Assembly (NCBI GenBank): GCA_965263035.1
Contig: OZ253580.1
Span: forward strand, 1,152,001 to 1,216,000
Direction: 5' to 3'
Length of the DNA stretch: 64,000 nucleotides
DNA from: Acidobacteriota bacterium
Lineage (GTDB): Bacteria > Acidobacteriota > UBA6911 > RPQK01 > JAJDTT01
A program made the position numbers and the translations under genes. Numbering within the stretch: the first letter of the stretch is position 1; each line of letters opens with the position of its first letter. The notes under the pieces were generated by a model. The model worked only from the letters and a program-made list of their open reading frames with translations, was not told where the DNA came from and made no database searches. Of the stretch, positions 1,377 to 17,646 are shown piece after piece.

Positions 1377-4300
1377 TCAGTTCCGGGGGCTGCCACCCTT
1401 CACCGGAGCGGGGATCAGGGTCGGGCGTTCCACTTCCTGTACGGGACGGCGCCCCAGGAGCCATCGGGCAGCTCGTCCCAGATCCTCCAGAATCATGTAG
1501 GTGCACGGCACCAGAATCAGGATGACCGGAGTCGAGAATACGACGCCGAACGCCAGGGAAACAGCCATGGGGATGAGGAACTGGGCCTGCAGACTCGTTT
1601 CCAGGAGCAATGGAGTCAGGCCGGCGAAAGTGGTCAGGGAGGTGAGGAAGATGGGCCGGAACCGAGCCGCCCCAGCTGTCAGGATCGACTCTCGGAGCGG
1701 GACTCCGGCACGCTGTTTCCGGTTGACGTAGTCGACCAGGATCAGACTGTCGTTCACGACCACGCCCGCCAGGGCAACGATGCCGAACACGGACAGGATG
1801 CTCAGGTCCATTCCCAGGATCCTGTGGCCCAGAAAGGCGCCCACCAACCCGAAGGGAATCGCGCTCATGATGATCAGCGGCTGGAAGTAGGAGCGGAGAG
1901 GAATGGCCAACAATGCAAAGATGGCAGCCAGGGCCATGCCGAAACCTTGCAGGAGTCCGCTTACCGTCTCGCTCTGCTGCTCCTGCTCGCCCTCCAACGA
2001 ATAGCTCAGGCCCGGAAACTGCTGCAACAGCGAGGGAAGGTAGTCCGCCTCCAACTCCGCCAGAATTTCGTTGGAGTTGGCCCGTTGAGTGTCCACCTCC
2101 GCGGTCACGCTGATGGAGCGATTCCGGTCCACCCGGCGGATGGATGCGAAGCCACGGCTCAGTTCGGAATCGGCCACCACTGAAAAGGGAACCTCATCGC
2201 CGTCCGGGGTCCGGATCCGCATCCCCTCCATCTGCCCCAGGGAACGGCGTCGATCCGAGGGATACCGGACCATGATCTTGACCTCGTCCCGGCCCCGCTG
2301 AATCCGCTGGACCTCCTCCCCGTAGAAGGCTTGTCGGATCTGTCTTGCCAAGTCCTCTTGCGTCAGACCCAGCGACTCGGCGTCCGGATGAATCTTGAGC
2401 TTGATCTCCTGCTTACCGGCCCGGAAGGAATCGGCGATGTCGTAGACCCCCGCGTATTCGTTCAATTTCAGCTTGAACTTGTGCGCGGCCTCCTGCAGTC
2501 GGTTCAGGTCGGGACCGGAGAACTGAACATTGATGGGAGCTCCCGCGGCGAAGAGTGAGGCCGAGAAGCTGAGTTCCACGGCATCTGGGATGGTTCCCGT
2601 CAACTCCCGCCAGCGGTTGCCTATCTCGGTGCTGCTGAAGAGTCTGCCGTCTTGTGCCAGGGGCCGTTCTTCGGATGGCGCCAGTTCAATGTTCACCTCT
2701 CCCAGGTGGGCGCCGGTGAATCGGGACACGCCTCCGTTGTGTCGATTCTGAATGACGCGGGTGGGTTGATCCCCCACTGACGTGAGCACATGACGGAACA
2801 CGCTGGCCGAGCCGTCCCCCTGGCTGGACGAGTCGATCTCCTCCCGGAGCACCGAGGCGGCTCGCTCCACTTTCTCCATCACGCGGGCGGTGGTCTCGGC
2901 CGGTGTGCCCTGAGGCATGGTCAGAAAGGCCATCACGTTGTCCGCCTCCACCGGAGGGAAGAAATTGAACTTGATTCTTCCGCCCAGAATCATGCCGACG
3001 ACCAGCACCAAGATGGAGACTCCCAGGGCCGCCGTCAGGTAACGCCACTCGACGGCCACGCGCAGGAGGGGTTCGTAGACCCGCTTGACGAATCCTTTGA
3101 GCAGTCCTGAGATCAGGTCCTGAAGGCGGTTCCACAACCCGAACAATCCCCGTTTCCGCAGACTTTCGGAGCGTCTCAGGTGGGAGAGGTGATAGGGCAG
3201 GATGAGCAGGGACTCGACCAGCGAAAAGACCAGTGTGGGCAGGACCACCAGGGGAATGACCCGCATGATCTTCCCGGTGGGGCCTTCGATCATCAGCAGT
3301 GGGGAGAAGGCGGCCACCGTGGTCGCCACCGCAAAAAACACGGGAACCATCATCTCCTGTGTCCCGTCGATGACCGCCTGCAGCTTGGGCTTCCCCTGCT
3401 CGTATTGGGAAAAGATGTTCTCGCCGACGACAATGGCGTCGTCCACCACAATTCCCAGTACGACGATGAAGGCGAACAGGGAGATCAGGTTGATGGAGAC
3501 GTCCAGGTGGGGCAAAACCATGAGGCAGCCCAGAAACGAAATGGGAATGCCCAGGCTGACCCAGAATGCCAGGCCGACTCTCAGAAACAACGTCAGAGTC
3601 AGAACGACCAGCGCCAACCCCGCCAAGCCGTTCTTGATCAGCAGGTCGAGCCGGCTCCGCAGGATGCGGGAGTCGTCCTTCCACGTGGTCAGCGTCAGGC
3701 CTTCCGGCAACTGCAACTGTTTCTGCCTGACGTACTCGCGAACGGCGGCGGCAATCTCCAGAGCGCTCTGCCTCCCGACTCGGAAGACCTGGACCAGGAT
3801 GGCCGGCCGGCCGTCGAACCGGGCCGATTGATCGGTCTCGGCGAACCCGTCCACCACCCGGGCCACGTCTCCCAGCAGGACCCGGGTGCCGTCCCGTCCG
3901 GAGAGAAGCGTCAGTTCCTGGAAATCCTCTCCCACGTAGGCCTGACTATTGGTTCTCAGCAGGATCTCGCCCGCCTGAGTCTTCACCGAGCCCCCAGGGA
4001 GGTCCAGGGAAGATCGGCGGACCGCCCGGGCCACCTGATCGAAGGAAAGGCTGTGGCGGAGCAGGGCTTCCTCCGAGACCTCGATGGAGACTTCATAAGG
4101 GCGGGCGCTGGACAACTCGGCCTGGGTGATCCCGGGCAGGGAGGCGACCTCGTCCCGAACCTGCTCGGCGACCCGCTTGAGGGTCCGCTCGTCCGCCTGT
4201 CCCGAGACGGCTATGTTGATGACCTGATTGCGGACGATGGCCTCCTGGATGACCGGCTGCTCGGCCTCCTCCGGAAAGGTGCTGATGGCGTCCACCCGGG

Positions 4301-4631
4301 CCTTGACCTCGTCCAGGAGTTCACGGATGTCGGTCCCCTCCAGCAGTTCCACGTTCACGATGCCCATGGCCTCGGAGGCCGTCGACGTGATCCGCTTCAC
4401 TCCGGGAAGGCTTTGAACGGCCTCCTCGATCCGGATGCAGATTCCCTGTTCGACCTCTTCGGGTGCGGCGCCCGGATAGAGAACCGACACGCTGATCAGA
4501 TCCGTCGAGAACTCGGGGAAGACCTCCTTTCGAATCTCGGGGACGGAGAGGGTGCCGCCGACCAGGATCACGACCATCAGCAGGTTGGCCACGACCCCGT
4601 TGGACGCAAACCAGGAAACGAGTCCCTTCAT
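1377..4631 (-). CDS. RND efflux transporter permease (AcrB/AcrD/AcrF family), copy 1
   Basis: 1084 aa; N-terminal TM (VANLLMVVILVGG), GIVVDDAIVVGENI, RFRPIFLTSLTT; two-repeat RND layout. Confidence 0.95.
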   Translation of the reverse strand: MKGLVSWFASNGVVANLLMVVILVGGTLSVPEIRKEVFPEFSTDLISVSVLYPGAAPEEVEQGICIRIEEAVQSLPGVKRITSTASEAMGIVNVELLEGTDIRELLDEVKARVDAISTFPEEAEQPVIQEAIVRNQVINIAVSGQADERTLKRVAEQVRDEVASLPGITQAELSSARPYEVSIEVSEEALLRHSLSFDQVARAVRRSSLDLPGGSVKTQAGEILLRTNSQAYVGEDFQELTLLSGRDGTRVLLGDVARVVDGFAETDQSARFDGRPAILVQVFRVGRQSALEIAAAVREYVRQKQLQLPEGLTLTTWKDDSRILRSRLDLLIKNGLAGLALVVLTLTLFLRVGLAFWVSLGIPISFLGCLMVLPHLDVSINLISLFAFIVVLGIVVDDAIVVGENIFSQYEQGKPKLQAVIDGTQEMMVPVFFAVATTVAAFSPLLMIEGPTGKIMRVIPLVVLPTLVFSLVESLLILPYHLSHLRRSESLRKRGLFGLWNRLQDLISGLLKGFVKRVYEPLLRVAVEWRYLTAALGVSILVLVVGMILGGRIKFNFFPPVEADNVMAFLTMPQGTPAETTARVMEKVERAASVLREEIDSSSQGDGSASVFRHVLTSVGDQPTRVIQNRHNGGVSRFTGAHLGEVNIELAPSEERPLAQDGRLFSSTEIGNRWRELTGTIPDAVELSFSASLFAAGAPINVQFSGPDLNRLQEAAHKFKLKLNEYAGVYDIADSFRAGKQEIKLKIHPDAESLGLTQEDLARQIRQAFYGEEVQRIQRGRDEVKIMVRYPSDRRRSLGQMEGMRIRTPDGDEVPFSVVADSELSRGFASIRRVDRNRSISVTAEVDTQRANSNEILAELEADYLPSLLQQFPGLSYSLEGEQEQQSETVSGLLQGFGMALAAIFALLAIPLRSYFQPLIIMSAIPFGLVGAFLGHRILGMDLSILSVFGIVALAGVVVNDSLILVDYVNRKQRAGVPLRESILTAGAARFRPIFLTSLTTFAGLTPLLLETSLQAQFLIPMAVSLAFGVVFSTPVILILVPCTYMILEDLGRAARWLLGRRPVQEVERPTLIPAPVKGGSPRN

Positions 4632-4804
4632 GGTGACACCTTGGGACTGAAATCAGCCTGAACTTGGACCCTCATTCCGTCGACGACATTGGCGGGGGAC
4701 ACCTGTTCTCCCTCCTTCGGAACCGAGTCGATGGCGACCCTTACCCGTTCTCACCGCACGGAACGTGAGCGGCGCAGCCGGAGAGTGGACTCCGAGCCCA
4801 CGAA
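4531..4804 (-). repeat. Left copy of a decayed ~270-bp direct repeat: degenerate MFP 3' end (4628-4804) followed by the intact RND 5' end
   Basis: The minus strand reads FVGSESTLRLRRSRSVR*ERVRVAIDSVPKEGEQVSPANVVDGMRVQVQADFSPKVSP*. This aligns with the C-terminus of the MFP at 14102-15277 (VVDSESRLRFRHVNVVRLEREQVIIDSGLEEGELVSLA...VIDGMKVQIQEDSNP). Its TGA overlaps the RND ATG (ATGA). Confidence 0.85.
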
Positions 4805-5043
4805 CGGACTCAAGAAAACGATTATCCAGGAAACCGAATCCCGGTTCCAGATCACGAACGACCTGGCAACTAGTGTTTCCGAAACAGATTCGTCGCGTCA
4901 AATTCGCCGACGCCGTAGCGCATGCTCGGGACCCGAAGCGAAGCGTGGACTGCCGATTGAGCTTCGATTTTTCTCGTCAACTGCTTGAGGACGCACCGAG
5001 AAATACAGGCTATGCCCGAACGGACAGCTGCACGCGTGCGCGC

Positions 5044-6084
5044 TCAGCCGGATTCCCGAGGATCGGGATAGAACTGTTTGCAATAGCGCCGATAGATCCC
5101 GATCTCGCCGTCGGATCGACACAGACTGGGGCGGGATCGGTACCGTTTCCGGCTCCAGATCGCCACATCCTGAAGCACGTCGCGCTTCTGCGCCCTTATA
5201 AGGATTTTGTTCATGATCTTGGCGCGCAACCGCAACGGAACAAACCGCAAACCGACGATCGGCCGTTTCGGTTTGCGGATCTCCCGCACCTGCCCGGCCA
5301 GCACCAGATCGATGAGCGTGCCGTCGACGGGCGTTGCGAGCACCCACAAACGTACATCCATGCCGATGGAGCGCTCGTGAACATCCACGAACGAGTATCC
5401 CAATCCAATCACGCGGGTGACAACTGAGAAGTCCAATAGGATCGCCCTGATCCCCGCGATGGTCTGAGTTCGCTTGAAGTCAAAACAACTCGTGAGGCAG
5501 GCGCCGTCCACGGTGACCGGTTCGACCCGGCTGACATTGCTGTAGCCGTGCACGTACCGCAGGTGCGCCAGGTCCACGGAGTTCTCGGTCGTTTCCTGAG
5601 GATGGCCGGGAAACCGGATGGTCCGAAACCTCAATCTGCTCCAGTCGGTGCCACCCGGCGGGTCCTCGGGAAGGCTCCATTGCGGTGGCCGTCCATTGAT
5701 TCCCCACCAGGCGAAGACCATGCCAAGGACCTCCCGCGTCTCGAATACCCGCAGCTTGGCGGCCCTGGGGGCCGGGGCAAAGGGAGTGGCAACGCATTGT
5801 CCGCTGACGTCGAACTCGTAGCCGTGAAACGGACAGACGAGACAACCGTCCCGCACCCGGCCTCCGGCGGCGGGCCCCAGATCGGCCCCCAAGTGCGGAC
5901 AAACCGCCTCCGCCACGCAGATGTGCCCTCCACCGCCGCACCAGGCGACGATTTCTTCGCCCATCCAGGTCTTCTGAATCAGCCTTTCCTGCAGAATGGA
6001 CTGACGGCTGGCAACGAAGTACCAACCCTCGGGAAACGGGGATAGCAAGGAGGAATTGTCCGGCTCGAGACATCTTGCTGGCAT
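5044..6084 (-). CDS. Rieske [2Fe-2S] non-heme iron oxygenase/desaturase, KshA/Neverland (cholesterol 7-desaturase)-like
   Basis: PFPEGWY start motif, Rieske CPHLG...CPFHG, mononuclear Fe motif ENSVDLAHLRYVH, and C-terminal QDVAIWSRKRY...SDGEIGIYRRYCKQFY typical of the KshA/Neverland group. ATG at 6084 preferred over TTG at 6096. Confidence 0.85.
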   Translation of the reverse strand: MPARCLEPDNSSLLSPFPEGWYFVASRQSILQERLIQKTWMGEEIVAWCGGGGHICVAEAVCPHLGADLGPAAGGRVRDGCLVCPFHGYEFDVSGQCVATPFAPAPRAAKLRVFETREVLGMVFAWWGINGRPPQWSLPEDPPGGTDWSRLRFRTIRFPGHPQETTENSVDLAHLRYVHGYSNVSRVEPVTVDGACLTSCFDFKRTQTIAGIRAILLDFSVVTRVIGLGYSFVDVHERSIGMDVRLWVLATPVDGTLIDLVLAGQVREIRKPKRPIVGLRFVPLRLRAKIMNKILIRAQKRDVLQDVAIWSRKRYRSRPSLCRSDGEIGIYRRYCKQFYPDPRESG

Positions 6085-6516
6085 TTCCCACCGCAACGTT
6101 GTGTTCTGACGGCTGCGGTAACCTCCGAGCCAAGCGGCTGGCTTAAAAATACCGGAATACGGGTTTTTGATCGTATGCCGGGGTTCGAACAGAGGCGCAT
6201 CGCGAGATTATCCGTGACTGGAGTGAAACCCATGGCCGCGGCTTGGCGGTCACGCCACAAACGCGACTTCCCCTACCGGGGCCTTCGCCAGACGGGGCGC
6301 CAGACGGCGGGACAATGACGGCAGACGATTCTTGCCTCCCTGAAGCTGTCCCGAGGAGAGACGAAAGAGCGTCTCCGTTCTTTTTGTCGTCGACGATCCC
6401 ATCACTCCCTCGGCCTCGTGACACGTAACGCCTTTCTCGCCAAACTTCCAGTCGGGACCCCATCGTTTCACATCGGCCGGACCGGGAAACAAACCAGGCA
6501 GTCAAGCTTACGAATG

Positions 6517-6683
6517 CTAGGAGTCTGCGCGGTAGGAATGATCGTAGCGAGAAAGTGGGGAATCGAGGCCAGATTTTCTCGATGTGGAGGTGCATAGTTG
6601 TTCTATTCGCCGAGAAATCGGGGAAATATGGACCGATTCTACCGCTTTCGCAGTAGATCAATTTCTGCCGCGCAGGATCCTAG
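6517..6683. mobile_element. MITE family A, copy 1 (167 bp including CTAG at both ends)
   Basis: Imperfect TIRs CTAGGAGTCTGCGCGGTAGGAATGATC / rc CTAGGATCCTGCGCGGCAGAAATTGATC. A near-identical copy lies at 17480-17646 (about 9 mismatches counted by eye). Confidence 0.9.
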
Positions 6684-7146
6684 GATAAACCGTTTGTTTT
6701 AAAGGTTTTATGTCACAGGTCCATGCTTATCTCGATTCCTGGACACTATCAAGTTTGCCATCCGTCATTGGCGTAACGGCCCGCCAGCGTGGCTGGGGAT
6801 CCCCTCCACGAAACGACCGGAAAAACCGCGGGATGCAGCCATGAGATCACGCCGGCAAGCCGTGTCGGCGTTGCCATTGCCATTTGTCGCCGGCCACCTT
6901 GCTACGAATTGTTTGCCGATGCGAATCCATCCGGTTTCCGAATCGATCCCCCGATCACCCGAAAACTTCACTGGCGACGCCGCTTTCAGCCGCTGTGTGC
7001 CGGCGGCGGCGTGGAGGAATTTGAACCTCCCGGCACCCGACCGGGTCCTGGGAGGCTTGTGGACCCTCCTCGAGCCGGTCGCTTTTCCAACCGGCGGCTC
7101 CGCCCGTGCGGCGAACCTCCGAGCCGCGTCAATATCTACCGAGTAG

Positions 7147-8370
7147 ATCACCAGGGGCAAGATAGCAGGCTACTTGGTTGCGGTTGTCATCCTTGCCGGT
7201 TCCGGTGCCCTGGCCTATTACCTGGTGTCGCTGGCACCCGAACCGGAGCGCAGTGAGCCGCCTCCCCAAATCCCGTTCGTACAGACCGGCCGGGTTGCGG
7301 CCGGCTCCGGCGCCATACCCGTGTACGGAGCCGGCACGGTGCGGTCCAGCGCGGAAGTCGACATTGCTCCGCTCGTCAGCGGCCGGGTCGTCTGGATGGA
7401 TCCGGGATTCCAGAGCGGCGGGCGGATCGCGTCGGGTCAACCGATCTTGCGCATCGATAACGCCGACTAATTGCAACGCTTGCGGGAGGCTGAGGCCGAT
7501 CTCGAAGCCCGTCGGGTAGCCCTCTCTGTGGCCCAGGAACAAGGGGCGTTCCCCCGCACTGAATTCGAGGAGTACTCCCGCCAGCAACTCGAGGCGGGAG
7601 CTCCCGTAGGCGAACCGGATCCCTTGGCTCTACGGGCACCGGAGATCAAGGCGGCTCGAGCCGCGCTGCACCGCGCCGAGGTCCAGATTGCCGGCGCCAA
7701 GCTGGCACTGTCCCGAACCGAACTGCGGGCGCCGTTTGACGGCTACGTGCGCGACGAGTCGGTGGATGCGGGACAGTTTCTGGCTGCTGGTCAGACCGTC
7801 GGGCGGCTGCTCGCCGCCGACGCCGTCGAGGTGGTCGTTCCCCTGTCCGACGCCAACGCCGCAATGATCCCAGGGCTTTGGAAACTTCGTGCGGGGGACG
7901 CCGAACGGCGCGTGACCGCCCGCGTGACCGCCAAATTCGACGACGACAGCTATGCCTGGAAGGGCTACGTCGACCGGGCTGAAATCTCAGTCGACGAGCA
8001 GACGCGAACCATTGACGCGATCGTACGCGTGCCCAACCCCTTTTCCGCGGGTGTTCCGGCGAACGGGTCCGGCGGTCTCGGCGGCGTAACCCCGCTCTTG
8101 ATAGGCAAGTTCGTGGAAGTAGAGATCCAGGGTCTTGCACCTGAGAGCTATTTCCGGATACCGCGGCCGGCACTGCGACCCGGCAACGAGGTGTGGACGG
8201 CAGGCAAAGACCAAAAGGTGAGTATTGTCCCGGTGCGTGTCCTGCAGCGGATCAACGATGAGGCCTTCGTAATGGGTGCTCTCGAAGACGGGCAGTTGGT
8301 GATCACCGGCGGTATCCAGTTCGTCACTGAAGACATGGTTGTACGGACCGGGAACGGCGTAATGCGATGA
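7147..8370 (+). pseudogene. RND membrane fusion protein (MFP) copy 2, broken by an in-frame TAA
   Basis: ORFs 7174-7470 and 7471-8370 are in the same frame, separated only by TAA at 7468-7470 (IDNAD*LQRL, where Tyr is expected; MFP1 has IDATDYHLQV). MFP motifs VSGRVVW, RTELRAPFDG and PLLIGKFVEVEIQG. The original start may be a mutated ATG (ATC at 7147). Confidence 0.85.
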
Positions 8371-11300
8371 GTCCGAAGGGAGAACTGCACGGGGAGCCGG
8401 GCGGTCCCATTGCCATCATGGCGAGCAACCGCGTCGCGGCCAATCTGTTGATGATCAGCATATTGGCGTTCGGCCTCGTGGCGTTTGGGGCTTTGGAGCG
8501 GGAAGCCTGGCCGACGGTTCCCTTCAATACCATCGAAGTGTCCGTGGTCTATCCCGGTGCCGCGCCCGAGGAGGTGGAGGAGTCGATCGTTGTCAAGATC
8601 GAGGAGCAGGTCGAGGCGCTGCCGGATGTCAAGGCGGTCAAGTCCATAGCGGCCCCGGGACTGGCATCGGTCAGGGTCGAATTGAAGACCGGCGCGGACA
8701 TCAACGAGGCCATGGACGAAGTCAAGTCCGCGGTCGCGCGCATCCCGTCGTTTCCCGGCGCAGCCGAGCGTCCGCAGTTCAGGGAGATGGACAATCGCAC
8801 CAGCATGATCCGTCTGATCGTGTTTGGCGACATCCCCGAGCGCTCGCTGAAGGAGTTGGCCTACCAGATCGAAGACGACTTGGGGTCGCTGCCCAACGTG
8901 TCGCACGTCGAGACCACCGGGACGAGAAACTACGAGATCTCGATCGAAGTGCCGCTCGTCCGCCTGCGCGCCTTCGGGCTGACGCTCGACGATATCGCGG
9001 ATGCGGTTCGCCGCAGTTCCCTGGACCTTTCAGCCGGCCGGATTGATACGCGGGTCGCCGAGGTGCGCGTCCGGACCATCGGCCAGAGCTACGATCAGCT
9101 CGACTTCGAGGAGATCGTCGTTGTCGCCCGGAACGACGGCACGATTATCCACCTCGGAGACATCGCCGAGGTGCGCGATGCCTTCCAGGACACCGACCTC
9201 ATCGTCCGGCACCAAGGGAAGCCGGCGGTCTTTGTCGAGGTCTACCGGGCCGAGGGCGAGCAGGTGATGGAGCTTGCGGGAGCCGTACACGAGCACATCG
9301 CGAACGAGATCGTCCCATCTCTGCCCCATGGCGTCGGGATCACCATCAGGAACGACGACTCCCAGACCTACTCGGAGCGGGCCGACATCCTCCGCAAGAA
9401 CGGTCTTCTGGGACTTATTCTGGTGTTCGTCGCATTGGCCCTGTTTCTCGAGATACGGCTCGCTTTGTGGGTCGTCGCCGGCCTGGTCACCTCGGGCGCC
9501 GGGGCCTTGGCCGTGATGCTGGCGCTCGACCTCGCGATCAATATCATTTCACTGTTCGCGTTCGTTCTGGCCATCGGCATCATCGTCGACGATGCCATTG
9601 TCGTGGCCGAGCACATCCACTACGAACGCATGCGGGGCGTTCCGGGAGTCGCCGCGGCGATCCGGGGCACGCGACGGATCAAGAAGGCGTTGACCTTCGC
9701 GGTTCTCACTTCGGTGGCGGCGTTCACGCCCCTGCTCTTCATCCCCGGGGGCATTGGAGAAGTGTGGAGCGCTTTGCCGGTGATCATCATCGGCATGCTG
9801 CTGATCTCGCTGGTAGAAGCGCTCCTGATACTGCCGAGCCACCTGTCCCACTTGCAGGGGCCGGAATGGGTGCCGGCCAACCTGGTGGATCGATTCTTCT
9901 CGTGTGTCCGACACTATATGGACCGAGGGCTGAACGGGTTCGTGAATGGCCCTCTGGATCGAGCGCTGCGCCTCGCGACGGATCATCCCGCCATCGTGGT
10001 GGCGGGGATCGTCGGACTATTCATTGTCAGCCTGTCGCTGGTACCGGCCGGTATTGTCACGACGACCTTTGCCCCCGTCGTGGAGGGTGACCTCGTCACC
10101 GCCACTCTCGAAATGCCGGACGGGACACCAGCCGAGCGGACCTACGAGGTGGCGATGGAACTGGAGCGGGCGGGAAGGCGGGTTCTGGAACGCCTGGATC
10201 GGGATCGACCGGACGATTTGCCCTCGTTGCTGTCGGGCGTGATCGTAACCGTCGGCCAGAGACCTCGCGTGGAAGGGGGAGGGCTTGACCCGACCCCCAC
10301 CATGAATCCGCAGTCAAACATCGCCTCCATCGAATTCAAGCTCTTGAGTTCCCAGCAACGGGAAATGTCCACCATTGCCATCATGCAGGCCTGGCGGGAC
10401 GAGGTCGGGATCCTCCCCTACGTTCGCGGGATCGCCTTCAGCGGCGAGGTCATCGATCTCGGCAGTCCCGTGGAGGCAGTGCTGTCGCATCCGGATCCGG
10501 AGCGCCTGTTGGAAATCGCCGACTCGGTAGTCGCCGGCCTTCGCAGTGTGGCGGGTGTCTTTGATGTCCGGTCCGATCATACGCCGGGCGTCGGGGAGAT
10601 TCAGCTGGCGTTGCGGCCGGAGGCGCGAACGCTCGGTCTCACGATCGAGGATTTAGCGCTGCAGGCGCGGGCGGCGTTCTTCGGCGTGGAGGCGCTGAGG
10701 GTACAGCGCCATCGCGAAGAGGTCCGGGTCTACGCGCGCCTGCCCGGCGACGAGCGCGATGCGATCACGGATGTCGAGGGCTACCTGATCCGCACCCGGT
10801 CGGGAGGACAGGTGCCGCTCAGCCAGGTGGCATCGATGAGAATGGGCACCTCACCGCCGTCGATCCGGCGCCAGGACGGTCAGCGCGTCGTCACGGTGAC
10901 GGCGGACGTGGACGAGAATGTGATTTCAGGCGGCGAAGCGAATGACATCCTCGAGAACACGATCCTCGCGCAACTGACCGCCGCCGCACCCGAGCTGACC
11001 TTCTCCTTTGGCGGCGAACAGCAGCAGCAGTTGGAGTCGCTGGACGCTCTGAACCGCGGGTTCATGCTCGCCATGTTCGCGATTTTCGGGCTGCTGGCCC
11101 TTTCCCTGGGGTCCTACGTCAAACCGTTTCTCGTGATGGCCATCATTCCGTTCGGTCTGATCGGCGTCGTCCTCGGCCACTTCGTATTGGGAGTCTCCAT
11201 AAGTGCCGCATCGTTCATGGGCTTCTTCGGGCTCAGCGGCGTCACCATCAACGATTCGCTGGTCATGATCGACTTCATCGACCAGCGGCGCAGGGAGGGC

Positions 11301-11558
11301 GCCGCTCCGAAGACGGCGATCATCGATGGCGCCAAGGGACGCTTCCGGCCCATCATCCTGACCTCAGTGACCACATTTCTCGGCTTCACGCCGCTCATTC
11401 TCGAACGGGCCATCCAGGCGCAGTTCCTGGTCCCCTTCGCCGCGTCGCTCGGGGTCCGAATCATGATTACAACCGGGATCCTGATGTTGCTCGTGCCGGC
11501 ACTTATGGCTGTCTATCTGCGTGCCAACTCGCGGCGCAGGGCAGCGGGGGCCATGTAA
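8367..11558 (+). CDS. RND efflux transporter permease, copy 2
   Basis: 1063 aa; GIIVDDAIVVAEHI, GRFRPIILTSVTT; same subfamily as 1377-4631; ATGA overlap with the MFP2 stop. Confidence 0.95.
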   Translation: MSPKGELHGEPGGPIAIMASNRVAANLLMISILAFGLVAFGALEREAWPTVPFNTIEVSVVYPGAAPEEVEESIVVKIEEQVEALPDVKAVKSIAAPGLASVRVELKTGADINEAMDEVKSAVARIPSFPGAAERPQFREMDNRTSMIRLIVFGDIPERSLKELAYQIEDDLGSLPNVSHVETTGTRNYEISIEVPLVRLRAFGLTLDDIADAVRRSSLDLSAGRIDTRVAEVRVRTIGQSYDQLDFEEIVVVARNDGTIIHLGDIAEVRDAFQDTDLIVRHQGKPAVFVEVYRAEGEQVMELAGAVHEHIANEIVPSLPHGVGITIRNDDSQTYSERADILRKNGLLGLILVFVALALFLEIRLALWVVAGLVTSGAGALAVMLALDLAINIISLFAFVLAIGIIVDDAIVVAEHIHYERMRGVPGVAAAIRGTRRIKKALTFAVLTSVAAFTPLLFIPGGIGEVWSALPVIIIGMLLISLVEALLILPSHLSHLQGPEWVPANLVDRFFSCVRHYMDRGLNGFVNGPLDRALRLATDHPAIVVAGIVGLFIVSLSLVPAGIVTTTFAPVVEGDLVTATLEMPDGTPAERTYEVAMELERAGRRVLERLDRDRPDDLPSLLSGVIVTVGQRPRVEGGGLDPTPTMNPQSNIASIEFKLLSSQQREMSTIAIMQAWRDEVGILPYVRGIAFSGEVIDLGSPVEAVLSHPDPERLLEIADSVVAGLRSVAGVFDVRSDHTPGVGEIQLALRPEARTLGLTIEDLALQARAAFFGVEALRVQRHREEVRVYARLPGDERDAITDVEGYLIRTRSGGQVPLSQVASMRMGTSPPSIRRQDGQRVVTVTADVDENVISGGEANDILENTILAQLTAAAPELTFSFGGEQQQQLESLDALNRGFMLAMFAIFGLLALSLGSYVKPFLVMAIIPFGLIGVVLGHFVLGVSISAASFMGFFGLSGVTINDSLVMIDFIDQRRREGAAPKTAIIDGAKGRFRPIILTSVTTFLGFTPLILERAIQAQFLVPFAASLGVRIMITTGILMLLVPALMAVYLRANSRRRAAGAM

Positions 11559-11574
11559 CCTGAACTTCCAGAGC

Positions 11575-11595
11575 CCGACGCTGCAGCAGCGTCGG
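11575..11595. terminator. Hairpin between the convergent RND2 and P450 genes
   Basis: CCGACGCTG-CAG-CAGCGTCGG, a perfect 9-bp stem; no clear U-tract. Confidence 0.4.
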
Positions 11596-11722
11596 TTCCG
11601 TCAGTCATTGCAGCCTGCCCTGTACTGCCGTGCGCAAGTGTGCACGCATTCTCGATGGCGTCCGTCATGACGCACTTAGAGTCATGCGGTTCCAGCCGTG
11701 GCGCTGATGCGCGCTTGCGTGC

Positions 11723-13744
11723 TCAGGCCGAGTTTCTGACTTCAGCCACGCGTAGCTTCAGCTTCTTGTCGGGGGCAGCTGTCGGGAACGGATTGATTCC
11801 GAGTTCGTAGTTTTCGGGCACCAGTTCCAGCTTCATGTGGTAAGCGATGAGCAGGAGGTTGACGACCATCTGAAGTTCCACCCACCGACTTCCCAGGCAA
11901 GTGTGCGTGCCCAGGCCATAGGGAGCGTAGGCACCCGGCGCCAGATGCTCTGCCCGACCCGGCAGGTAGCGGTCTATGTCGAATTTCAGCGGATCCTTGA
12001 ACAGATCGCCGTCGTAGTGGGACGCCGTCTGGCAAACCAACAGTCGCGTTTGAGCAGGTATTTCGAAGCCCCTGACGATGCACTGGTTCATGACCGTCCT
12101 CAGCTGCCAGGGAATCACCGGGTACAGACGCGCGGACTCCATGCAGAGGCGGTGGGTGACGTCGATGCTGTGTTGGGTAAAGTCCCCCGCTTCCGGTTCA
12201 CGCCCGTTACCGAAGAACGACCCGGCTTCTTGCCGGACCTTCGCGTATAGATCCGGGTGGCGAACCATGGAATAGACTGCGAAGCCAAGCCCGCTGCCGA
12301 GATAGAGGCTGGCGATCATTGACGCGACGAAGGGGAAGACGAGGTCCGTTTCCGGAAGGAACTGCGGATCGTTGTGATGGAGTCCGAGGATTGCGTCGGC
12401 AAGATCCGGCGGCTGACCCTTCCTCTGCGCCGGCGTGTGGGATGCTTGAATCGACTCCTGGAGTTCACGGATACGCTTGCCGTAACGCTTCATCTTGGGC
12501 GTTGACATCATGAATTTCGGCAACGCGCCCTGAACGTGCGTCACCAGCGCACGATGTTCAAATTCCAGGAGTTCGTCGACGTAGTGACTGCAATCCACTC
12601 CTATCATCAGATGCGAGATCTGACTGCTGACGTGGGTCTGGAACGTCCCGGTCGCACGGAAAACGTCGCCTTCATTCCATAGCCTGAGCGATCGCCTGCA
12701 GTGGTGGATCAACTCTGGTAGCCGTCGCGCAAGCGTGGTTCGGGAATAGGCACTCTGTAGCGACTTGCGCATCTTGTAGTGTTCGGCGCCATCCATGCCC
12801 GGCAGGGTTCGGGATGCGCCGAACGCGTGTTCGAGATCCTGGATGTAGTCCTTCGACCGAAGGTAGAACCGCCCTTTCTTGTTGACCCACCGATTGGTCT
12901 CCGGCCCGATCAAGGCAACAACAGTTGCCTTGTCCATTTTGAAGGGAAGCTCGACGACCGGCCCGTACTTCCGGAAGATGTCGTACATCGCCTTTGGAAT
13001 GTTGCACGTGCGGAAGTCACGCTGTCGCAGGATGTCGAAGATCCGGAGCCTTGGGATGGGCTTGGTTCGAAGAACACGGCGGGTTCTCGGTGTGGCGGTG
13101 CTCTCCCTCACCGCGCTGGCAACCGATCGCCCTACCAGATCCAGCTTGGCGATCGTCTCGATCCGCTCGAGCTTCTCCTCATATTCCTCTGGCGGAAGCA
13201 GCAGCTTGAAACCGTCGCATGTATGCATCAAGGCAACGAGGATGGCGTCTCTCGGGTCCGGAATGAAATCGTTCAAGATGACGCTCAGGACTCTTGCCTT
13301 GGCTTCCTGGCGGGTCCTTTCGTCGGAGATCGGATAGTGTCCGGAACGTGAAACGGAGCGCGAGAGCGTCCAGAATCCGCCGCTCTCGTAGTCGAGGATC
13401 CCCCTCTCCACCAGGCGATCGAGTGTGGCCGAGACGATTTCTTCGGAACGGGCCGTGTTCCGTTCGATCCAGTACTGCGAATCCCGGGTCTCCCGGGATT
13501 CGGCGATTTCGTTGAGCGTGGGGTCGAGCAGGTCGTCTCCGGTTGGACTGGGATCAACCAGATACAACGCGTCCAAATCGGTGTCGATTCGATCCTCCAG
13601 CGCAAGGTCGGCGATTACAGCTCCCGCCATGACGCAGGAGAAATTCCAGCCTGGAACCATTTCCAGATAGCCGGTCCGTTCGTTGAGCATCAGGAGGATC
13701 AGCTCTTCGGCAAGGCGTATCGGGAACTCGGGGATCCTTCTCAT
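11723..13744 (-). CDS. GPP34 (GOLPH3-like) domain-cytochrome P450 fusion protein
   Basis: The N-terminal ~215 aa look like GPP34 (LAEELILLML...GAVIADLALEDRID...TGDDLLDPTL...LVERGIL). The C-terminal P450 has ESARLYP (ExxR), FDIDRY (PERF-equivalent) and the heme loop YGLGTHTCLG. Confidence 0.85.
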   Translation of the reverse strand: MRRIPEFPIRLAEELILLMLNERTGYLEMVPGWNFSCVMAGAVIADLALEDRIDTDLDALYLVDPSPTGDDLLDPTLNEIAESRETRDSQYWIERNTARSEEIVSATLDRLVERGILDYESGGFWTLSRSVSRSGHYPISDERTRQEAKARVLSVILNDFIPDPRDAILVALMHTCDGFKLLLPPEEYEEKLERIETIAKLDLVGRSVASAVRESTATPRTRRVLRTKPIPRLRIFDILRQRDFRTCNIPKAMYDIFRKYGPVVELPFKMDKATVVALIGPETNRWVNKKGRFYLRSKDYIQDLEHAFGASRTLPGMDGAEHYKMRKSLQSAYSRTTLARRLPELIHHCRRSLRLWNEGDVFRATGTFQTHVSSQISHLMIGVDCSHYVDELLEFEHRALVTHVQGALPKFMMSTPKMKRYGKRIRELQESIQASHTPAQRKGQPPDLADAILGLHHNDPQFLPETDLVFPFVASMIASLYLGSGLGFAVYSMVRHPDLYAKVRQEAGSFFGNGREPEAGDFTQHSIDVTHRLCMESARLYPVIPWQLRTVMNQCIVRGFEIPAQTRLLVCQTASHYDGDLFKDPLKFDIDRYLPGRAEHLAPGAYAPYGLGTHTCLGSRWVELQMVVNLLLIAYHMKLELVPENYELGINPFPTAAPDKKLKLRVAEVRNSA

Positions 13745-13963
13745 AAATCTCCAGTCCGGATTGGACGGCTCAAGGCCTGGGCCTTCGCCGGGAGCCGGTC
13801 AGCCGGACGCGCTGCTCATAAAGCCTTGCAGCACAAACGTCATTGCCCCCGTCCGACCAAGCGCCAGCCATCGGGAGACGGGGCCAGCGAGCGGGCGGAT
13901 GGCTCCGTTTCCCTCTATATAGCATACTCCTAGCCGAATTTGAGGATGGCGTCGTCCAGCAGG

Positions 13964-14008
13964 GGGAAGCGGGCCGTCTTCGACTACATCGAGGGGTTCT
14001 ACAACCGG
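13964..14008 (+). mobile_element. IS3-family transposase C-terminal remnant
   Basis: Reads GKRAVFDYIEGFYNR, matching the IS3 OrfB 'xIFxYIExFYNxxR' motif. It abuts the right-hand repeat. Only ~45 bp remain. Confidence 0.55.
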
Positions 14009-14275
14009 ATCCCCGAGAACGAAGCGAGCAACGCCGATCAGGATCAGGGCCCTCAGCCAGTTGGCCACGATACCGGATGATGCGGCCCGATCATGGTGAC
14101 TTCAGGGGTTGGAATCCTCCTGAATTTGGACCTTCATCCCGTCGATGACCGTGGCCAGGGTGGCCAGCGAAACCAGTTCTCCCTCTTCCAGACCCGAATC
14201 GATGATGACCTGTTCCCGCTCCAGCCGCACGACGTTCACATGGCGGAAACGGAGCCTGGACTCCGAGTCCACGAC
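14006..14275 (-). repeat. Right copy of the decayed direct repeat: intact MFP 3' end followed by a degenerate RND 5' end (14006-14094)
   Basis: After the MFP stop comes GTCACCATGA, as before RND1, then a frameshifted GIVANWLRALILIGV. This aligns with RND1 GVVANLLMVVILVGG at DNA and protein level. Confidence 0.8.
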
Positions 14276-15277
14276 CAACACCTGATCTTCCCCCCGAAGT
14301 GCCGCCCGGGGCAAGGTAACGACATTCTCCAGCCGGCGGCCCTGGATTTCGGCTTCCACGAACATGCCCACGGCGAGGGGAGGACGGTCCGGATCCGGAC
14401 CCCGGCCATAGGGGTCAGCCACCTGAGCGATGGCGTGGATCATCCGGGTCTGAGGATCGATGGTCCCATCCGTTCGCACGATCCTCCCGTTCCATGAATG
14501 CTTCCGCTGGCCGAACTCGGCCCGCAGGAGAACGACGGGATGGCGTTTCTCCGACCCGTCGCCGCGATAGCCGAGGGGCAGGTCCACATAGGCCAACTCC
14601 TCGTCGGGTAGCGGCAGCCGGATCTCGGCATGGTCCACGGCATAGATCGTGGCCACCGGAGTCCCCGGGGTCACGTATTGGCCGATGTCCACGTTTTTTC
14701 GAAGGACCCGCCCCGCGAACGGAGCGGCGATCCTGGTCTTCTCCAGATTTCGCCTGGCCTGGGCCAAAGCGGCCTGAGCCGAAGAAAGCGCGGCCTTGGC
14801 CCGAGCGATCTGGGGCACTCGTCGCAACAGGGGGAGGGCCTCCCCTTCTCCCAGACTCTCCCATTCTTTGCGGGCGACCTCGGCCTGGGCCTCTTCGGTC
14901 TCCAAAGACAGTTGAGCCTGCGCGATCTGAGACTCGGCCTGAACCACCTGCAGGTGGTAGTCCGTGGCGTCGATCCTGAGGAGTTGACCTCCCGCCTCGA
15001 AGAACCCCCCGTCCGCGAGAGAGGGGGAGACTTCCAGGACCCGTCCCGCGATCTCGGGAAACAAAGTGGTCTGGGTTCGGGGAGCCACAGTCCCCTGGGA
15101 CATGACCTTCAGCCGGAGTGTCTGAAGCTGCACGGGAACGACCCGGATCACCGGAACCGGAATCTCCGGAGGCCGGGTCTCGACCACGGGGCGGTCGTTG
15201 AATATCTTCCAGGCCCACGTCGAGGCAACGGCCAAAGTCGCCATGGGCAGCAGAACCTTCAGCAGAAGCTTGATCAA
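14102..15277 (-). CDS. RND membrane fusion protein (MFP) copy 1
   Basis: 391 aa; N-terminal TM, EIAGRVLEV, KTRIAAPFAGRV, PLAVGMFVEAEIQG. Confidence 0.93.
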   Translation of the reverse strand: MIKLLLKVLLPMATLAVASTWAWKIFNDRPVVETRPPEIPVPVIRVVPVQLQTLRLKVMSQGTVAPRTQTTLFPEIAGRVLEVSPSLADGGFFEAGGQLLRIDATDYHLQVVQAESQIAQAQLSLETEEAQAEVARKEWESLGEGEALPLLRRVPQIARAKAALSSAQAALAQARRNLEKTRIAAPFAGRVLRKNVDIGQYVTPGTPVATIYAVDHAEIRLPLPDEELAYVDLPLGYRGDGSEKRHPVVLLRAEFGQRKHSWNGRIVRTDGTIDPQTRMIHAIAQVADPYGRGPDPDRPPLAVGMFVEAEIQGRRLENVVTLPRAALRGEDQVLVVDSESRLRFRHVNVVRLEREQVIIDSGLEEGELVSLATLATVIDGMKVQIQEDSNP

Positions 15278-16740
15278 TTGCCGTTCTCTCCGGTGAGAGT
15301 CACCGGGAGAAGTGCTCCCGGGGCACCCGGCGGGGCGCCCGGCTCGAAGCCGCCTCCCAGCGCCAAGTGGAGATCGATCCGGTTTTCCAGCAAGAGGCGC
15401 TGCAGGGTCAGGATCTGACTCTTGGAGTTGAGGATCCGACGATCCGTCTGCAACACCACCAGCATATCCCCCAGGCCATGGCGATAGCGAAACTGGGCCT
15501 GGTCCCGGGCCGTCTCGGCTTCCACGACTGATTCTTCCAGTTCACGCAGCCGATCTCGCAAGAAACTTTCAACCGAAAGGGCCGTCTCAACCTCGCCGAA
15601 GGCCTGCAGGACTGCACCAGCGTAGGTCTCCAGGATTTCCTGGGACCGGCCTTGGGCAATGTCGACCTGACGCTTGAGGCGTCCTCCCTGAAAGAGGGGC
15701 TGGACCAGGTTGCCCAGCAGGCTCCAGACGGCGTAGTCCCCATTCACCAGGCTCAACAGACCTTTGGTGGCCGTTCCACCGGCCGTGGTGAGGCTCAGTC
15801 GAGGGTGAAGGGCCGATTGAGCCTGGACGATTCCGACATCGGAGGCCAGCAGACGCCGCTGCGCCGCGATGAGATCGGGTCGGCGCGTCAGGAGCTGGGA
15901 GGGGACGCCGGCCGGAACGCCGGAGGAAACCTGGGGAAGGCTCTCCCGAACTTGCAGCTCCCCGTAGGGATAGCGTCCGACCAGGAGTTCGACTTGGCGA
16001 TTCCCGCGGTCCAATTGCTCGCGGCGAAGATGGACGGCGGATTCAGCGGCAGAAATGTCTGCCTGGACCAGACTGATTTCCACGGCCTGCCCCAGACCCG
16101 CCTCAAAGCGATTTCTGAGCCACTGGGAGGTCGCCTCATAACTGGCCACCGTCTCCCGGGCCAGGGCCAACTGAAGATTTGCCTCCGAGCAGACAAACCA
16201 CGCCTTGGCCGTCTGGCCCGCCAACGAATGCCTCGCCGCAGCAAGATCCGCTGCATGCGCGGAGGCGAGAGCACCGGCTTGAATCTCGCCGCTACGGATT
16301 CTCCCCCAGAGGTCCGCCTCCCAGTTGACGTCCAGGGAGGCACCGAGGTTGGTAAACGTTGCCCGCGGCACCCGGCCCTCGAAACCGGGTATGGGAAAAC
16401 CGATAAAGTTTTGCCGCTGACGGCGGCCGTTCAAGCTGAGTCCGAGCGACGGAATCCGGTCGGCACCGGCAATCTGGGCTTCGATCAGGGCCGTCTCCAA
16501 GCGGGCGGCGACGGCCCGAAGTTGAGGATTGTGGCGGAGCGTTTCCTCGATCAACGCATCCAATTGCGGATCCTGAAACTGTTTCCACCAATGGACATCG
16601 ACCGTTCCCTCCGCCGCCGTTCCCGAATTCCACGCCTCTGGAATCGGCAGGCTCGGCTGCCGTTCGGGTGGGACCGCGGTCCGGACGCATCCGGCTCCCG
16701 GAAGGAGCATGGCCAGAAAAAGAAGGTGCGTGGATCTCAT
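15274..16740 (-). CDS. Outer membrane efflux lipoprotein (NodT/OprM/TolC family)
   Basis: Lipobox GAGC, WEADLWGRIR, PSQLLTRRPDL, LHLALGGG. Confidence 0.95.
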   Translation of the reverse strand: MRSTHLLFLAMLLPGAGCVRTAVPPERQPSLPIPEAWNSGTAAEGTVDVHWWKQFQDPQLDALIEETLRHNPQLRAVAARLETALIEAQIAGADRIPSLGLSLNGRRQRQNFIGFPIPGFEGRVPRATFTNLGASLDVNWEADLWGRIRSGEIQAGALASAHAADLAAARHSLAGQTAKAWFVCSEANLQLALARETVASYEATSQWLRNRFEAGLGQAVEISLVQADISAAESAVHLRREQLDRGNRQVELLVGRYPYGELQVRESLPQVSSGVPAGVPSQLLTRRPDLIAAQRRLLASDVGIVQAQSALHPRLSLTTAGGTATKGLLSLVNGDYAVWSLLGNLVQPLFQGGRLKRQVDIAQGRSQEILETYAGAVLQAFGEVETALSVESFLRDRLRELEESVVEAETARDQAQFRYRHGLGDMLVVLQTDRRILNSKSQILTLQRLLLENRIDLHLALGGGFEPGAPPGAPGALLPVTLTGENGN

Positions 16741-17402
16741 CCGTAATTTTCCTGTGATGGAATCGGAGTCCGAAACCCGGCTGCCAGAAAACTGACAAGA
16801 CGAGCGACCACCTCGTCCACCTGGGACGGTTCCGGGACATCCAAGAAGAGGTTCTCCAGGTTTTCCAGATTCTTCCAGTCCGCGATCACGTGAAGCGTGT
16901 GGGACATGGCGCCCACCATGAAATGAAACCTCCAGAAAGCTTCTTCTCTGGGCAAATCGGGGAGCCTTGGGCTCAGGGCTCCGGAGAAACGCTCGATGAC
17001 CTCGGCGAACTGTCCATAGATCATCTCCCGAATCGCTTCGTCAGGAGAGTTGAAAGCCCGGGAGAGAAGCTGCATGAAGCGCATGCTCCCTCTCTCGGGA
17101 TCCCGGATCAGCTGTACCGGCGGTCGGATGAACGCCTCCAAGATCTTCTCCAGGGAGGGCACGGCCCCATCGGCGTCAACCTGACACTGGTCCAAGAGCG
17201 TCAGGCGCTGCCGGTTGAGAGGAGACAGACGCAGGGCGAAGAGCTCCTGAATGAGTCGATCCTTGGAGCCGAAGTGATAGTGCATGGCGGCCAGATTCAC
17301 ATTGGCCCGCGAGGTGATCATGCGAACCGAGGTCGCGGAAAATCCCCGAGCTGCGAAGAGTCCTTCCGCCGCCGCCAGGATCCTGGTTCTGGTGTCCTGC
17401 AT
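16737..17402 (-). CDS. TetR-family regulator, PsrA-like
   Basis: TRTRILAAAEGLFAARGFSATSVRMITSRANVNLAAMHYHFGSK HTH; C-terminal AFWRFHFMVGAM. ATG at 17402. Confidence 0.9.
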   Translation of the reverse strand: MQDTRTRILAAAEGLFAARGFSATSVRMITSRANVNLAAMHYHFGSKDRLIQELFALRLSPLNRQRLTLLDQCQVDADGAVPSLEKILEAFIRPPVQLIRDPERGSMRFMQLLSRAFNSPDEAIREMIYGQFAEVIERFSGALSPRLPDLPREEAFWRFHFMVGAMSHTLHVIADWKNLENLENLFLDVPEPSQVDEVVARLVSFLAAGFRTPIPSQENYG

Positions 17403-17414
17403 GATCCCCGAATA

Positions 17415-17469
17415 AAACAACCGTTTAAAACGTACGATCGTTCTACAAAAATTTCGTCCCGACTGTCAA
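17415..17469 (-). promoter_or_regulatory. Sigma70 promoter of the tetR-omf-mfp operon with a PsrA-type operator
   Basis: TTGACA (17469-17464), 18-bp spacer, TAGAAC. The palindrome AAAC-N4-GTTT at 17415-17426 lies between the -10 and the ATG and matches the PsrA box core. Confidence 0.65.
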
Positions 17470-17479
17470 ATGCTGCCAA

Positions 17480-17646
17480 CTAGGAGGCTGCGCTGTAGAA
17501 ATGATCGTAGCGAGAAAGTGGGGAATCGAGGCCGGATTTTCTCGATTTGGAGGTGCATAGTTGTTCTATTCGCCGAGAAATCGAGGAAATATGGACCGAT
17601 TCTACCGCTTTCGCAGTAGGTCAATTTCTGCGGCGCAGGCTCCTAG
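17480..17646. mobile_element. MITE family A, copy 2 (167 bp)
   Basis: CTAGGAGGCTGCGC...GCGCAGGCTCCTAG; direct repeat of 6517-6683. Confidence 0.9.

Follow-up and report, generated by a model that had tools for sequence, protein, structure and literature searches.

A GPP34-cytochrome P450 gene that travels with an efflux pump, and what is probably a reduced, decaying copy of its putative lipid-tailoring cassette in an acidobacterial genome

The 64,000-nucleotide stretch of an Acidobacteriota genome analyzed here (the window; positions 1,152,001 to 1,216,000 of contig OZ253580.1, assembly GCA_965263035.1) holds an insert of four genes, which encode a Rieske oxygenase, the adaptor (membrane fusion protein, MFP) and the permease of a resistance-nodulation-division (RND) efflux pump, and a fusion of a GPP34 domain with a cytochrome P450 that belongs to the GPP34_L family. 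Our principal finding is that the GPP34-P450 gene travels with one orthologous MFP-RND pump, and often also with genes for a Rieske oxygenase, a sterol methyltransferase (SMT), a flavin adenine dinucleotide (FAD) oxidoreductase and an outer-membrane factor (OMF). An earlier account made from the letters alone (the sequence-only reading) had proposed a bounded insert at 4805-14005, and this proved essentially exact, with direct repeats at both ends. The positions and classes it gave for the four cassette genes were likewise confirmed by our open reading frame (ORF) listing and by scans with Pfam and NCBIfam; what it overlooked was that the adaptor is a pseudogene, and that the insert also holds a 168-nt element resembling a miniature inverted-repeat transposable element (MITE) and a 46-nt scar of an IS3-family insertion sequence (IS). 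In order of position, the insert contains:

5044-6096, minus strand: Rieske oxygenase, KshA-like (Rieske 55.3 bits; KshA_C 90.9 bits, cut-off 23.3)
6517-6684, no strand: MITE-like element of 168 nt with inverted ends, in the spacer between Rieske and adaptor genes (second copy at 17480-17647)
7147-8370, plus strand: cassette adaptor (MFP), pseudogene (HlyD_3 41.2 bits, over 7471-8370)
8367-11558, plus strand: cassette RND permease, HAE1/AcrB type (ACR_tran 512 bits)
11723-13744, minus strand: GPP34-cytochrome P450 fusion, GPP34_L family (GPP34 124.2 bits; p450 111.1 bits)
13963-14008, plus strand: 46-nt scar left by an IS3-family transposase gene, from its 3' end (11 further genomic places match it at 87-89% identity)

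Scanning one genome per species, we found 39 loci with the fusion gene in at least six phyla; by label, 14 belong to Pseudomonadota, 13 to Acidobacteriota, 7 to Rhodothermota, 2 to Gemmatimonadota and 1 each to Chloroflexota and Actinomycetota, with 1 unplaced. Neighbors within 10 kb of the fusion gene were counted at all 39 loci and in the subset of 25 flanked by at least 8 kb on each side:

Pump orthologue: 29 of 39 loci; 21 of 25
Adaptor: 23 of 39 loci; 18 of 25
Rieske oxygenase: 23 of 39 loci; 18 of 25
Pump and Rieske oxygenase together: 19 of 39 loci
SMT: 12 of 39 loci; 11 of 25
FAD oxidoreductase of amine-oxidase type: 9 of 39 loci; 6 of 25
OMF: 20 of 39 loci; 16 of 25

The sequence-only reading expected these gene types to recur together in other genomes, and they do. 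The pump is the same pump throughout, in that the orthologues beside the P450 gene are 65-91% identical to that of the window, compared with 38-52% when the window's own paralogue is set against the same loci, and of the five genomes with no pump near the P450 gene, three have an orthologue of 65-70% identity elsewhere. The neighboring methyltransferases score 59.6 and 61.7 bits with Pfam Sterol_MT_C (cut-off 21.7). Gene order varies: at three loci (L029, L033 and L031, the last with its pump match ~9.5 kb further along) the P450 gene stands between the adaptor and pump genes, in the order Rieske, adaptor, P450, pump on one strand, in Pseudomonadota the P450 gene precedes the pump, and in Rhodothermota the order is pump, Rieske, FAD oxidoreductase, P450. 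Linkage that is kept across phyla despite such shuffling is a classical sign of a functional unit, and chance alone does not account for a grouping whose orthologues keep turning up together in other phyla. The fusion proteins are 70-80% identical between phyla and their P450 tree mixes the phyla, with at least two label changes needed for each large phylum; therefore the cassette has been transferred, which bears out the suggestion that it is acquired and mobile.

The fusion of the window is an intact protein of 673 residues, with GPP34 (PF05719) at residues 11-214 and p450 (PF00067) at residues 244-651 of a single ORF. It nests in a tree of 38 two-domain proteins, as expected of a member of the GPP34_L clade, and more than 100 clusters, every one of which has both domains, match it at 71-87% identity along 99-100% of the protein (counted among the best 120 clusters, at 71-100% identity, the 100% entry being the window's own cluster). 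The haem loop of the P450 domain reads YGLGTHTCLG, and its residues G610, G612, H614, C616 and G618 are invariant in 30 sequences, as are E536 and R539 of the ExxR motif. The acid-alcohol pair of the I-helix (AGxD/ET) is missing: alignments to CYP120A1, CYP46A1 and CYP51 place L480/Y481 or Y481/L482 there, and A478, S479, Y481 and L482 are invariant or nearly so across the family. Among solved chains, those nearest to the P450 domain include CYP120A1, CYP46A1 and CYP51 (E ~1e-17); a fold search with the AlphaFold2 (AF2) model of the fusion (predicted local distance difference test, pLDDT, 79.8) returned generic class-II-like matches at TMt 0.72-0.80 that give no clue to the substrate.

The GPP34 domain is a true homologue of GOLPH3 (profile E 1.8e-12). 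In GOLPH3, according to PMC13408441, phosphatidylinositol 4-phosphate (PI4P) is bound by W81, R90, R171 and R174. In profile alignments to 3KN1 and 9QPQ, R90 corresponds to an invariant Ala (Ala40), R171 to Asp or Glu (E101 in the window) and R174 to Val104, such that three of the four PI4P-binding residues are replaced family-wide and only a Trp near W81 is kept, at an alignment accuracy of 0.69-0.77. A conserved GGFW...VSRSG segment aligns with the membrane hairpin region, but the pLDDT of the model drops below 50 over residues 121-135. Two other loci are worth recording for this family. A Pseudomonadales locus carries, 7 kb from its first fusion gene, a second and very divergent GPP34-P450 paralogue (L014:882-2855, minus strand), which shares a long branch with a Caldilineaceae sequence. 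At L040:10001-10609, a GPP34 part with two stop codons matches only residues 9-213 and probably represents a decayed fusion gene.

The Rieske gene is also intact, with a likely start at the ATG at 6084 and a cluster representative (P0123) of 346 residues. Its translation contains the motifs CPHLG...CPFHG and ENSVDLAHLRYVH, and C66, H68, C88, H91, D175, H178 and H183 are invariant in 24 family members; CxH...CxxH provides the ligands of the Rieske cluster and E-x3-D-x2-H-x4-H is the mononuclear iron motif. Compared as a family profile with the PDB, the protein finds KshA best (E 3e-32, in two collinear stretches) and SxtT next (1e-21). Its AF2 model (pLDDT 82.5, predicted TM score 0.82) gives the same order by fold: Foldseek ranks 1-6 are all KshA, at TMq 0.73-0.79 over ~340 columns, and GxtA/SxtT follow at 0.65-0.69. 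Identity to the KshA structures is just 21-24%, too low for KshA orthology, and the protein reaches 25.6 bits with the SdmA model, which has its cut-off at 600. By sequence and predicted structure, then, the protein appears to resemble a KshA-type steroid oxygenase without being KshA, and its reaction may be hydroxylation or desaturation at another position. The sequence-only reading had likened it to both KshA and Neverland; KshA is indeed its nearest solved relative by sequence and fold, but we found nothing specific to Neverland.

Several related Rieske proteins have unusual architectures. P0243 (675 residues), 61% identical to that of the window, includes an MMPL-type transporter segment (Pfam MMPL 43 bits), by true fusion or by joint gene calling, which is another link of the Rieske oxygenase to lipid transporters. 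P0244-P0252 (640-686 residues) are nine KshA_C-type Rieske proteins, 37-41% identical to it, with an N-terminal extension of ~300 residues. They come from a search for longer Rieske proteins that gave 11, six of which were scanned with Pfam (P0243 and five of the 37-41% forms); no Pfam family was found on the extension in those five. A GPP34-Rieske fusion was considered and rejected, as the extension of P0246 is unrelated to the GPP34 profile (hhalign probability 0.2). The two GPP34-Rieske fusions described in PMC11706023 were not recovered among the best 120 matches listed in the length range to which they would belong.

The cassette pump is intact, with 1063 residues that cover positions 7-1017 of the 1021 of the ACR_tran profile, and its start overlaps the adaptor stop codon. 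The solved chains nearest to it are the efflux pumps MdtB and MexB (E 1e-58 to 2e-66), and models of the hopanoid transporter HpnN give 16.7-20.5 bits against cut-offs of 752-1100. Which outer-membrane channel could serve it? The OMF at 15274-16740, 1.3 kb from the insert, is the only match that our OMF queries gave in the genome at E<=1e-15, and since it is the only OMF of its kind found there, the earlier proposal that the pump borrows it in trans is plausible. Elsewhere, the cassette pump match of a Bryobacterales locus (L005, 12197-15270) is split over three reading frames and is either broken or affected by indel errors of assembly, and transposase genes adjoin the pump at two further loci (L006, 2216-3964; L008, 12291-13694).

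The cassette sits inside an operon of a TetR regulator, an OMF, an adaptor and an RND permease, because each end of the insert carries one live and one remnant half of the same adaptor-3'/pump-5' junction. This junction forms a direct repeat of ~260 nt (4538-4803 and 14014-14274), the copies of which are 73-82% identical and lie 9471-9476 bases apart. At the left end the RND half is the live start of the permease gene and the adaptor half is a remnant, 70.7% identical over 167 nt (blastn) to the intact adaptor tail and 69-71% to the corresponding tails in relatives; at the right end the adaptor half is the live end of the intact adaptor gene and the RND half is a remnant, in which the ATG and first codons are still visible and which is cut off by the IS3 scar. 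The features outside the four cassette genes are:

1377-4631, minus strand: RND permease of the host operon, RND_left (ACR_tran 544 bits)
4632-4803, minus strand: left boundary repeat, what remains of an adaptor (MFP) gene at its 3' end (paired with 14161-14274 in direct repeats D2 and D7)
14014-14097, minus strand: right boundary repeat, what remains of an RND gene at its 5' end (D3 and D5, against 4538-4599, at 74-83%)
14102-15277, minus strand: intact adaptor (MFP) of the host operon (RND_mfp 158.6 bits)
15274-16740, minus strand: OMF of NodT type, host operon (OEP 109.6 bits; outer_NodT 283 bits, cut-off 210)
16737-17420, minus strand: TetR-family regulator at the head of the host operon (TetR_N, TetR_C_30; PsrA-like 139.6 bits, below the cut-off of 300)

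RND_left is a paralogue of the cassette pump (40.7% identity) and is 87-90% identical to the same gene in relatives of its genus; the P450 gene lies downstream of the TetR gene on the same strand. Alternatively, the cassette may lie between two paralogous operons, each of which has been trimmed. As the sequence-only reading held, two oxygenase classes flank the MFP-RND pair, and we found no ferredoxin, reductase, OMF or regulator between 4632 and 14101, by Pfam and NCBIfam and by inspecting the small spacer ORFs by eye. ORFs 6143-6661 and 6789-7256 have neither a Pfam nor an NCBIfam family, 4765-5427 has no Pfam family, and 13799-14068 and 13843-14148 have no NCBIfam family. The spacer of 1.07 kb between the Rieske and adaptor genes holds no convincing gene, and the remaining ORFs of at least 40 residues in 6097-7173 resemble, by eye, the chance frames of G+C-rich DNA. 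The G+C content of the insert (0.57-0.67) is not distinct from that of its flanks, and a scan of 4500-17700 gave 1 promoter-like and 10 terminator-like sites compared with 2.4 and 11.5 in shuffled sequence, so no excess of either. Beyond the TetR gene, ORFs 17800-18429 and 18467-19864 have no Pfam family; relatives of the same genus keep them next to the operon, as clusters c16 and c17 in L010 and L012.

Five loci of the same genus (L010, L011, L012, L025 and L032) have the same gene order of TetR, OMF, adaptor, P450, pump, adaptor, Rieske and RND, and therefore the insertion is older than these species. DNA of the adaptor is present in five of the eight other genomes of the genus and in none of 22 outside it, and the right-hand spacer of L032 matches the window at 69.7% over 350 nt. 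The flanking genes of these loci are 85-90% identical to those of the window, compared with 74-76% for the P450 and 74-78% for the Rieske protein. In the tree, the P450 of the window groups among those of Rhodothermota and another acidobacterial group (support 98) and outside the clade of its congeners (support 100); forcing the seven sequences of the same context together costs 51 log-likelihood units (approximately unbiased test, p 0.006), this group being defined by gene order but named after the tree had been seen. The Rieske protein of the window likewise falls outside a clade of its congeners (support 99). The cassette pump is 86-87% identical to its orthologues in L010-L012 and merely 65-66% to the allele of L025 and L032, where a methyltransferase is present too. 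From the separate position of the P450 and the divergent pump of L025 and L032 it follows that the locus has exchanged alleles in place, and the P450 allele of the window is among those exchanged.

The window also shows decay. The cassette adaptor gene still reaches 113.9 bits with NCBIfam RND_mfp (cut-off 94.9), but it is dead. Its start has been lost to an AGG at 7153-7155 (I-T-R-G-K, against I-T-M-R-K in relatives), a position that encodes Arg in the window but Met in 10 of 19 relatives, all five congeners among them, and the gene is interrupted by an in-frame TAA at 7468-7470, where 14 of the 19 have Tyr and 3 have Phe, and the stretches of the other 2 end before the site. Across 6647-8619, a contig from run X5, which belongs to another study, shows 0 differences from the window, so the dead adaptor is not an assembly error. 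A TTG directly after the TAA (window 7468-7473) is a possible start, and two pieces of 98 and 299 residues are conceivable; there is no sign that a split adaptor functions. By tblastn, the genome has this broken adaptor and that of the host operon, 30% identical to each other, the latter being the only intact AcrA-type adaptor found; the same searches found a single Rieske gene, a single GPP34-P450 gene and a single OMF. With its adaptor gene reduced to a pseudogene, the cassette has a broken export arm in this genome; of the earlier claim of a cassette that modifies and exports a compound, the linkage of enzyme and pump genes stands, and export here is put in question.

Mobile elements have struck the locus too. 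The MITE of the spacer is 95% identical to the second copy at 17480-17647 (repeat D1) and gives 186 blastn high-scoring segment pairs in the 6.2-Mb genome, its own copy counted, with 95-100% identity among the matches listed (40 of 186). A contig from run X7 joins 6516 to 6680, with the MITE missing; therefore the insertion is polymorphic and the MITE family has been recently active. Over 6680-8619 this contig has 9 differences from the window, 6 of them listed. The MITE is present also in L011, at 92% identity. Copies of the IS3-family element, at least 11 of them, lie at C1:34375 and 10 further genomic sites, and in the window only the 46-nt scar is left: a full copy elsewhere ends ...AVFDFIEGFYNRRRRHS and the scar reads AVFDYIEGFYNRI. 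What the window shows is a shifting mosaic, in which an IS and a MITE have struck the cassette, one of its genes has died and one allele has been swapped.

Does the bacterium make the lipid on which the two oxygenases would act? We found no full-length triterpene cyclase in its genome, where the only match is a 34-bit partial cyclase repeat in a protein of 398 residues, and among five other carrier genomes one (G031) has a full-length cyclase (403 bits). Because five of the six carrier genomes examined lack one, the lipid is probably made by the host, as the sequence-only reading had supposed. Its further suggestion of a sterol as substrate gains support from the SMT genes at 12 loci and from KshA being nearest to the Rieske protein by sequence and fold. 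No SMT orthologue was found in the window's own genome; nor was an FAD oxidoreductase of the cassette type, although the empty result of that search shows nothing.

On balance, we consider it probable that the insert is a reduced and decaying copy of a cassette of sponge-symbiont bacteria for tailoring and efflux of a sterol-type lipid, its habitat being given by the survey in PMC11706023. Sample names are coded, both for the window and for the runs. (In run X20, labelled sponge metagenome, no more than 0.06 of the words occur, and it says nothing about habitat.) We propose that sterols not made by the bacterium would partition into its membranes, where GPP34 would dock the P450 on the cytoplasmic face of the inner membrane by way of the conserved hydrophobic hairpin (GGFW) and not through PI4P; P450 and Rieske oxygenase would then oxidize the sterol with electrons from housekeeping ferredoxin systems, and the tripartite pump would extrude the product, possibly back to the host. 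Here the cassette has no methyltransferase or flavoprotein and its adaptor is dead; both oxygenases and the orphan pump gene are intact, and export, if there is any, would go through the neighboring adaptor and OMF.

A number of observations weigh against this proposal. Enzyme activities and ligands are predicted ones, sterol entry into the cell has no proposed route, and the window itself is without a methyltransferase, such that its link to sterols rests on its relatives. The Rieske gene is present at 23 of the 39 loci but is not constant, occurring at only 3 of the 14 in Pseudomonadota; among five Pseudomonadota genomes with no Rieske gene nearby, two have a homologue of 45-47% identity elsewhere and three have no match at E<=1e-20 anywhere. 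KshA_C-type oxygenases also act on compounds other than steroids, and SxtT/GxtA and dicamba demethylase are the next matches; in the P450 fold search, CYP184A1, BM3, CYP2D6 and CYP3A4 rank alongside CYP46A1 and CYP51; and the pump is of the ordinary HAE1 multidrug type. As for electrons, the genome has one stand-alone 2Fe-2S ferredoxin (120 residues, C1:3893330-3893692) with no reductase beside it, and no fused reductase of KshB type is found among its seven Fer2-bearing ORFs, in a search limited to the Fer2 family. Finally, there is a hint that the P450 and Rieske genes are transcribed, as contigs from two metatranscriptome libraries of one study span the whole P450 gene, running into the operon adaptor, and most of the Rieske gene, but RNA libraries may hold DNA and contigs give neither strand nor level. 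Such contigs cover little of the cassette adaptor and pump, from which absent transcription cannot be read.

If not a sterol, what else might the cassette handle? One alternative, which we regard as unlikely, is detoxification: the P450, with or without the Rieske oxygenase, would oxidize toxic lipophiles of the sponge holobiont, such as terpenoids or halogenated alkaloids, and a multidrug-type pump would expel them, in the manner of phase I and phase III in animals. The HAE1 pump, nearest to MdtB/MexB/AcrB, and the place of the cassette inside or beside TetR-controlled efflux operons would suit this, the xenobiotic P450s CYP2D6, CYP3A4 and BM3 match the model as well as sterol P450s do, and according to PMC11706023 the carriers are confined to a chemically rich host. 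What detoxification accommodates poorly are the SMT genes inside the cassette at 12 of 39 loci and a Rieske protein nearest to steroid hydroxylases; moreover, the very high conservation across phyla and hosts fits a substrate common to all sponges better than toxins specific to each host.

A rather less likely variant of the sterol proposal is that the symbionts take up, remodel and return host sterols, with GPP34 as a bacterial anchor, a P450 that needs no partner, and enzymes that would be useful without export. On this view some of the odd sterols credited to sponges, which serve as fossil markers of early animals, would be products of a gene cassette that their bacteria pass among themselves. 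CYP74 and prostacyclin synthase rearrange their substrates without a redox partner, and by analogy a partner-free P450 may rearrange sterol peroxides or epoxides; that the fusion may work in this way is suggested by the absence both of the acid-alcohol pair and of any partner in the cassette. If the pump arm decays and both oxygenases are kept, with the P450 allele exchanged, this would mean that the enzymes also serve the bacterium without export.

The only published model, in which GPP34_L is a secreted effector that binds PI4P of the host and blocks phagosome maturation, its gene neighbors being unrelated to its function, seems to us improbable. It is consistent with the homology of the GPP34 domain to GOLPH3, with the resemblance of the P450 domain to eukaryote-type P450s and with the report of GPP34_L only from sponge symbionts, where it is expressed (PMC11706023). 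That paper deals with the flanks of the short form only; its main text and one supplement mention no RND, efflux or sterol, and the PDF supplement (Fig. S11) may show flanking genes. Against this model, the replacement of three of the four PI4P-binding residues throughout the family argues directly, and no N-terminal signal-like sequence is seen, by eye, in the fusion translation. In addition, an effector gene would hardly be expected between adaptor and pump genes, as at three loci, or near an orthologous pump at 29 of 39, and a P450 requires haem and a redox partner. Least probable of all is tailoring and outward transport of a self-made lipid, a hopanoid or bacterial sterol, for the outer membrane of the bacterium itself: hopanoids and sterols are carried by RND transporters in other bacteria (HpnN; Methylococcus BstA) and the carrier G031 has its full-length cyclase, but neither the window's genome nor four of the five other carriers has one, and the pump is of AcrB type with an adaptor and falls far below the HpnN cut-offs.

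Why would a sterol-tailoring cassette matter? GPP34-P450 is among the most widespread of the proteins specific to sponge symbionts, and the only published reading of it is manipulation of the host by way of PI4P, whereas its gene neighbors and its missing PI4P residues suggest a lipid chemistry that is linked to efflux. Should a host sterol be the substrate, this bears on who makes the unusual sterols of sponges and hence on sterane fossils as evidence of early animals. In the literature searched, no paper connected GPP34 to bacterial sterols, and a preprint on SMTs (10.64898/2025.12.19.695621) mentions none of P450, Rieske, efflux or RND. What is already known is the fusion protein, published in 2025; specific to the window are four features: the cassette is inserted in an efflux operon, its adaptor is dead, it has no methyltransferase and its P450 allele has been exchanged.

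Four known systems invite comparison. GPP34_L itself was described as 656 proteins confined to sponge symbionts, with carriers making up 85.5% of 76 symbiotic Acidobacteriota genomes and both GPP34 architectures expressed in sponge metatranscriptomes (Microbiome 2025;13:4, PMC11706023). The window protein has the same two-domain order, GPP34 then P450, and is of the same family, but where that paper reads a PI4P-binding secreted effector, we find a gene tied to a pump, a Rieske oxygenase and SMTs, with the PI4P arginines absent. With KshA, the oxygenase of 3-ketosteroid 9-alpha-hydroxylase (PDB 4QDC, 2ZYL), the Rieske protein shares the Rieske domain, the KshA_C catalytic domain, the motifs and the fold; it differs in being 21-24% identical, in that no KshB-type reductase was found, and in having an efflux pump rather than steroid catabolism as its context. 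Brown et al. 2023 (PMC10070321) describe SMT genes of uncultured sponge bacteria clustered with oxygenases, among them homologues of true ERG11 (~31% identity, E 1e-70) and sdmA (44-47%), often with a cyclase; the words P450, Rieske and RND are missing from the main text of that paper. Compared with those clusters, the cassette has a P450 fused to GPP34, a pump, no cyclase and a Rieske protein far below the SdmA cut-off. Lastly, like AcrAB-TolC, MexAB-OprM and MdtABC, the cassette has a permease of full ACR_tran architecture, an adaptor gene that overlaps the pump start and an OMF nearby; it differs from them in that its adaptor is here a pseudogene and in that its pump is dedicated to a set of enzymes and has been carried with them across phyla.

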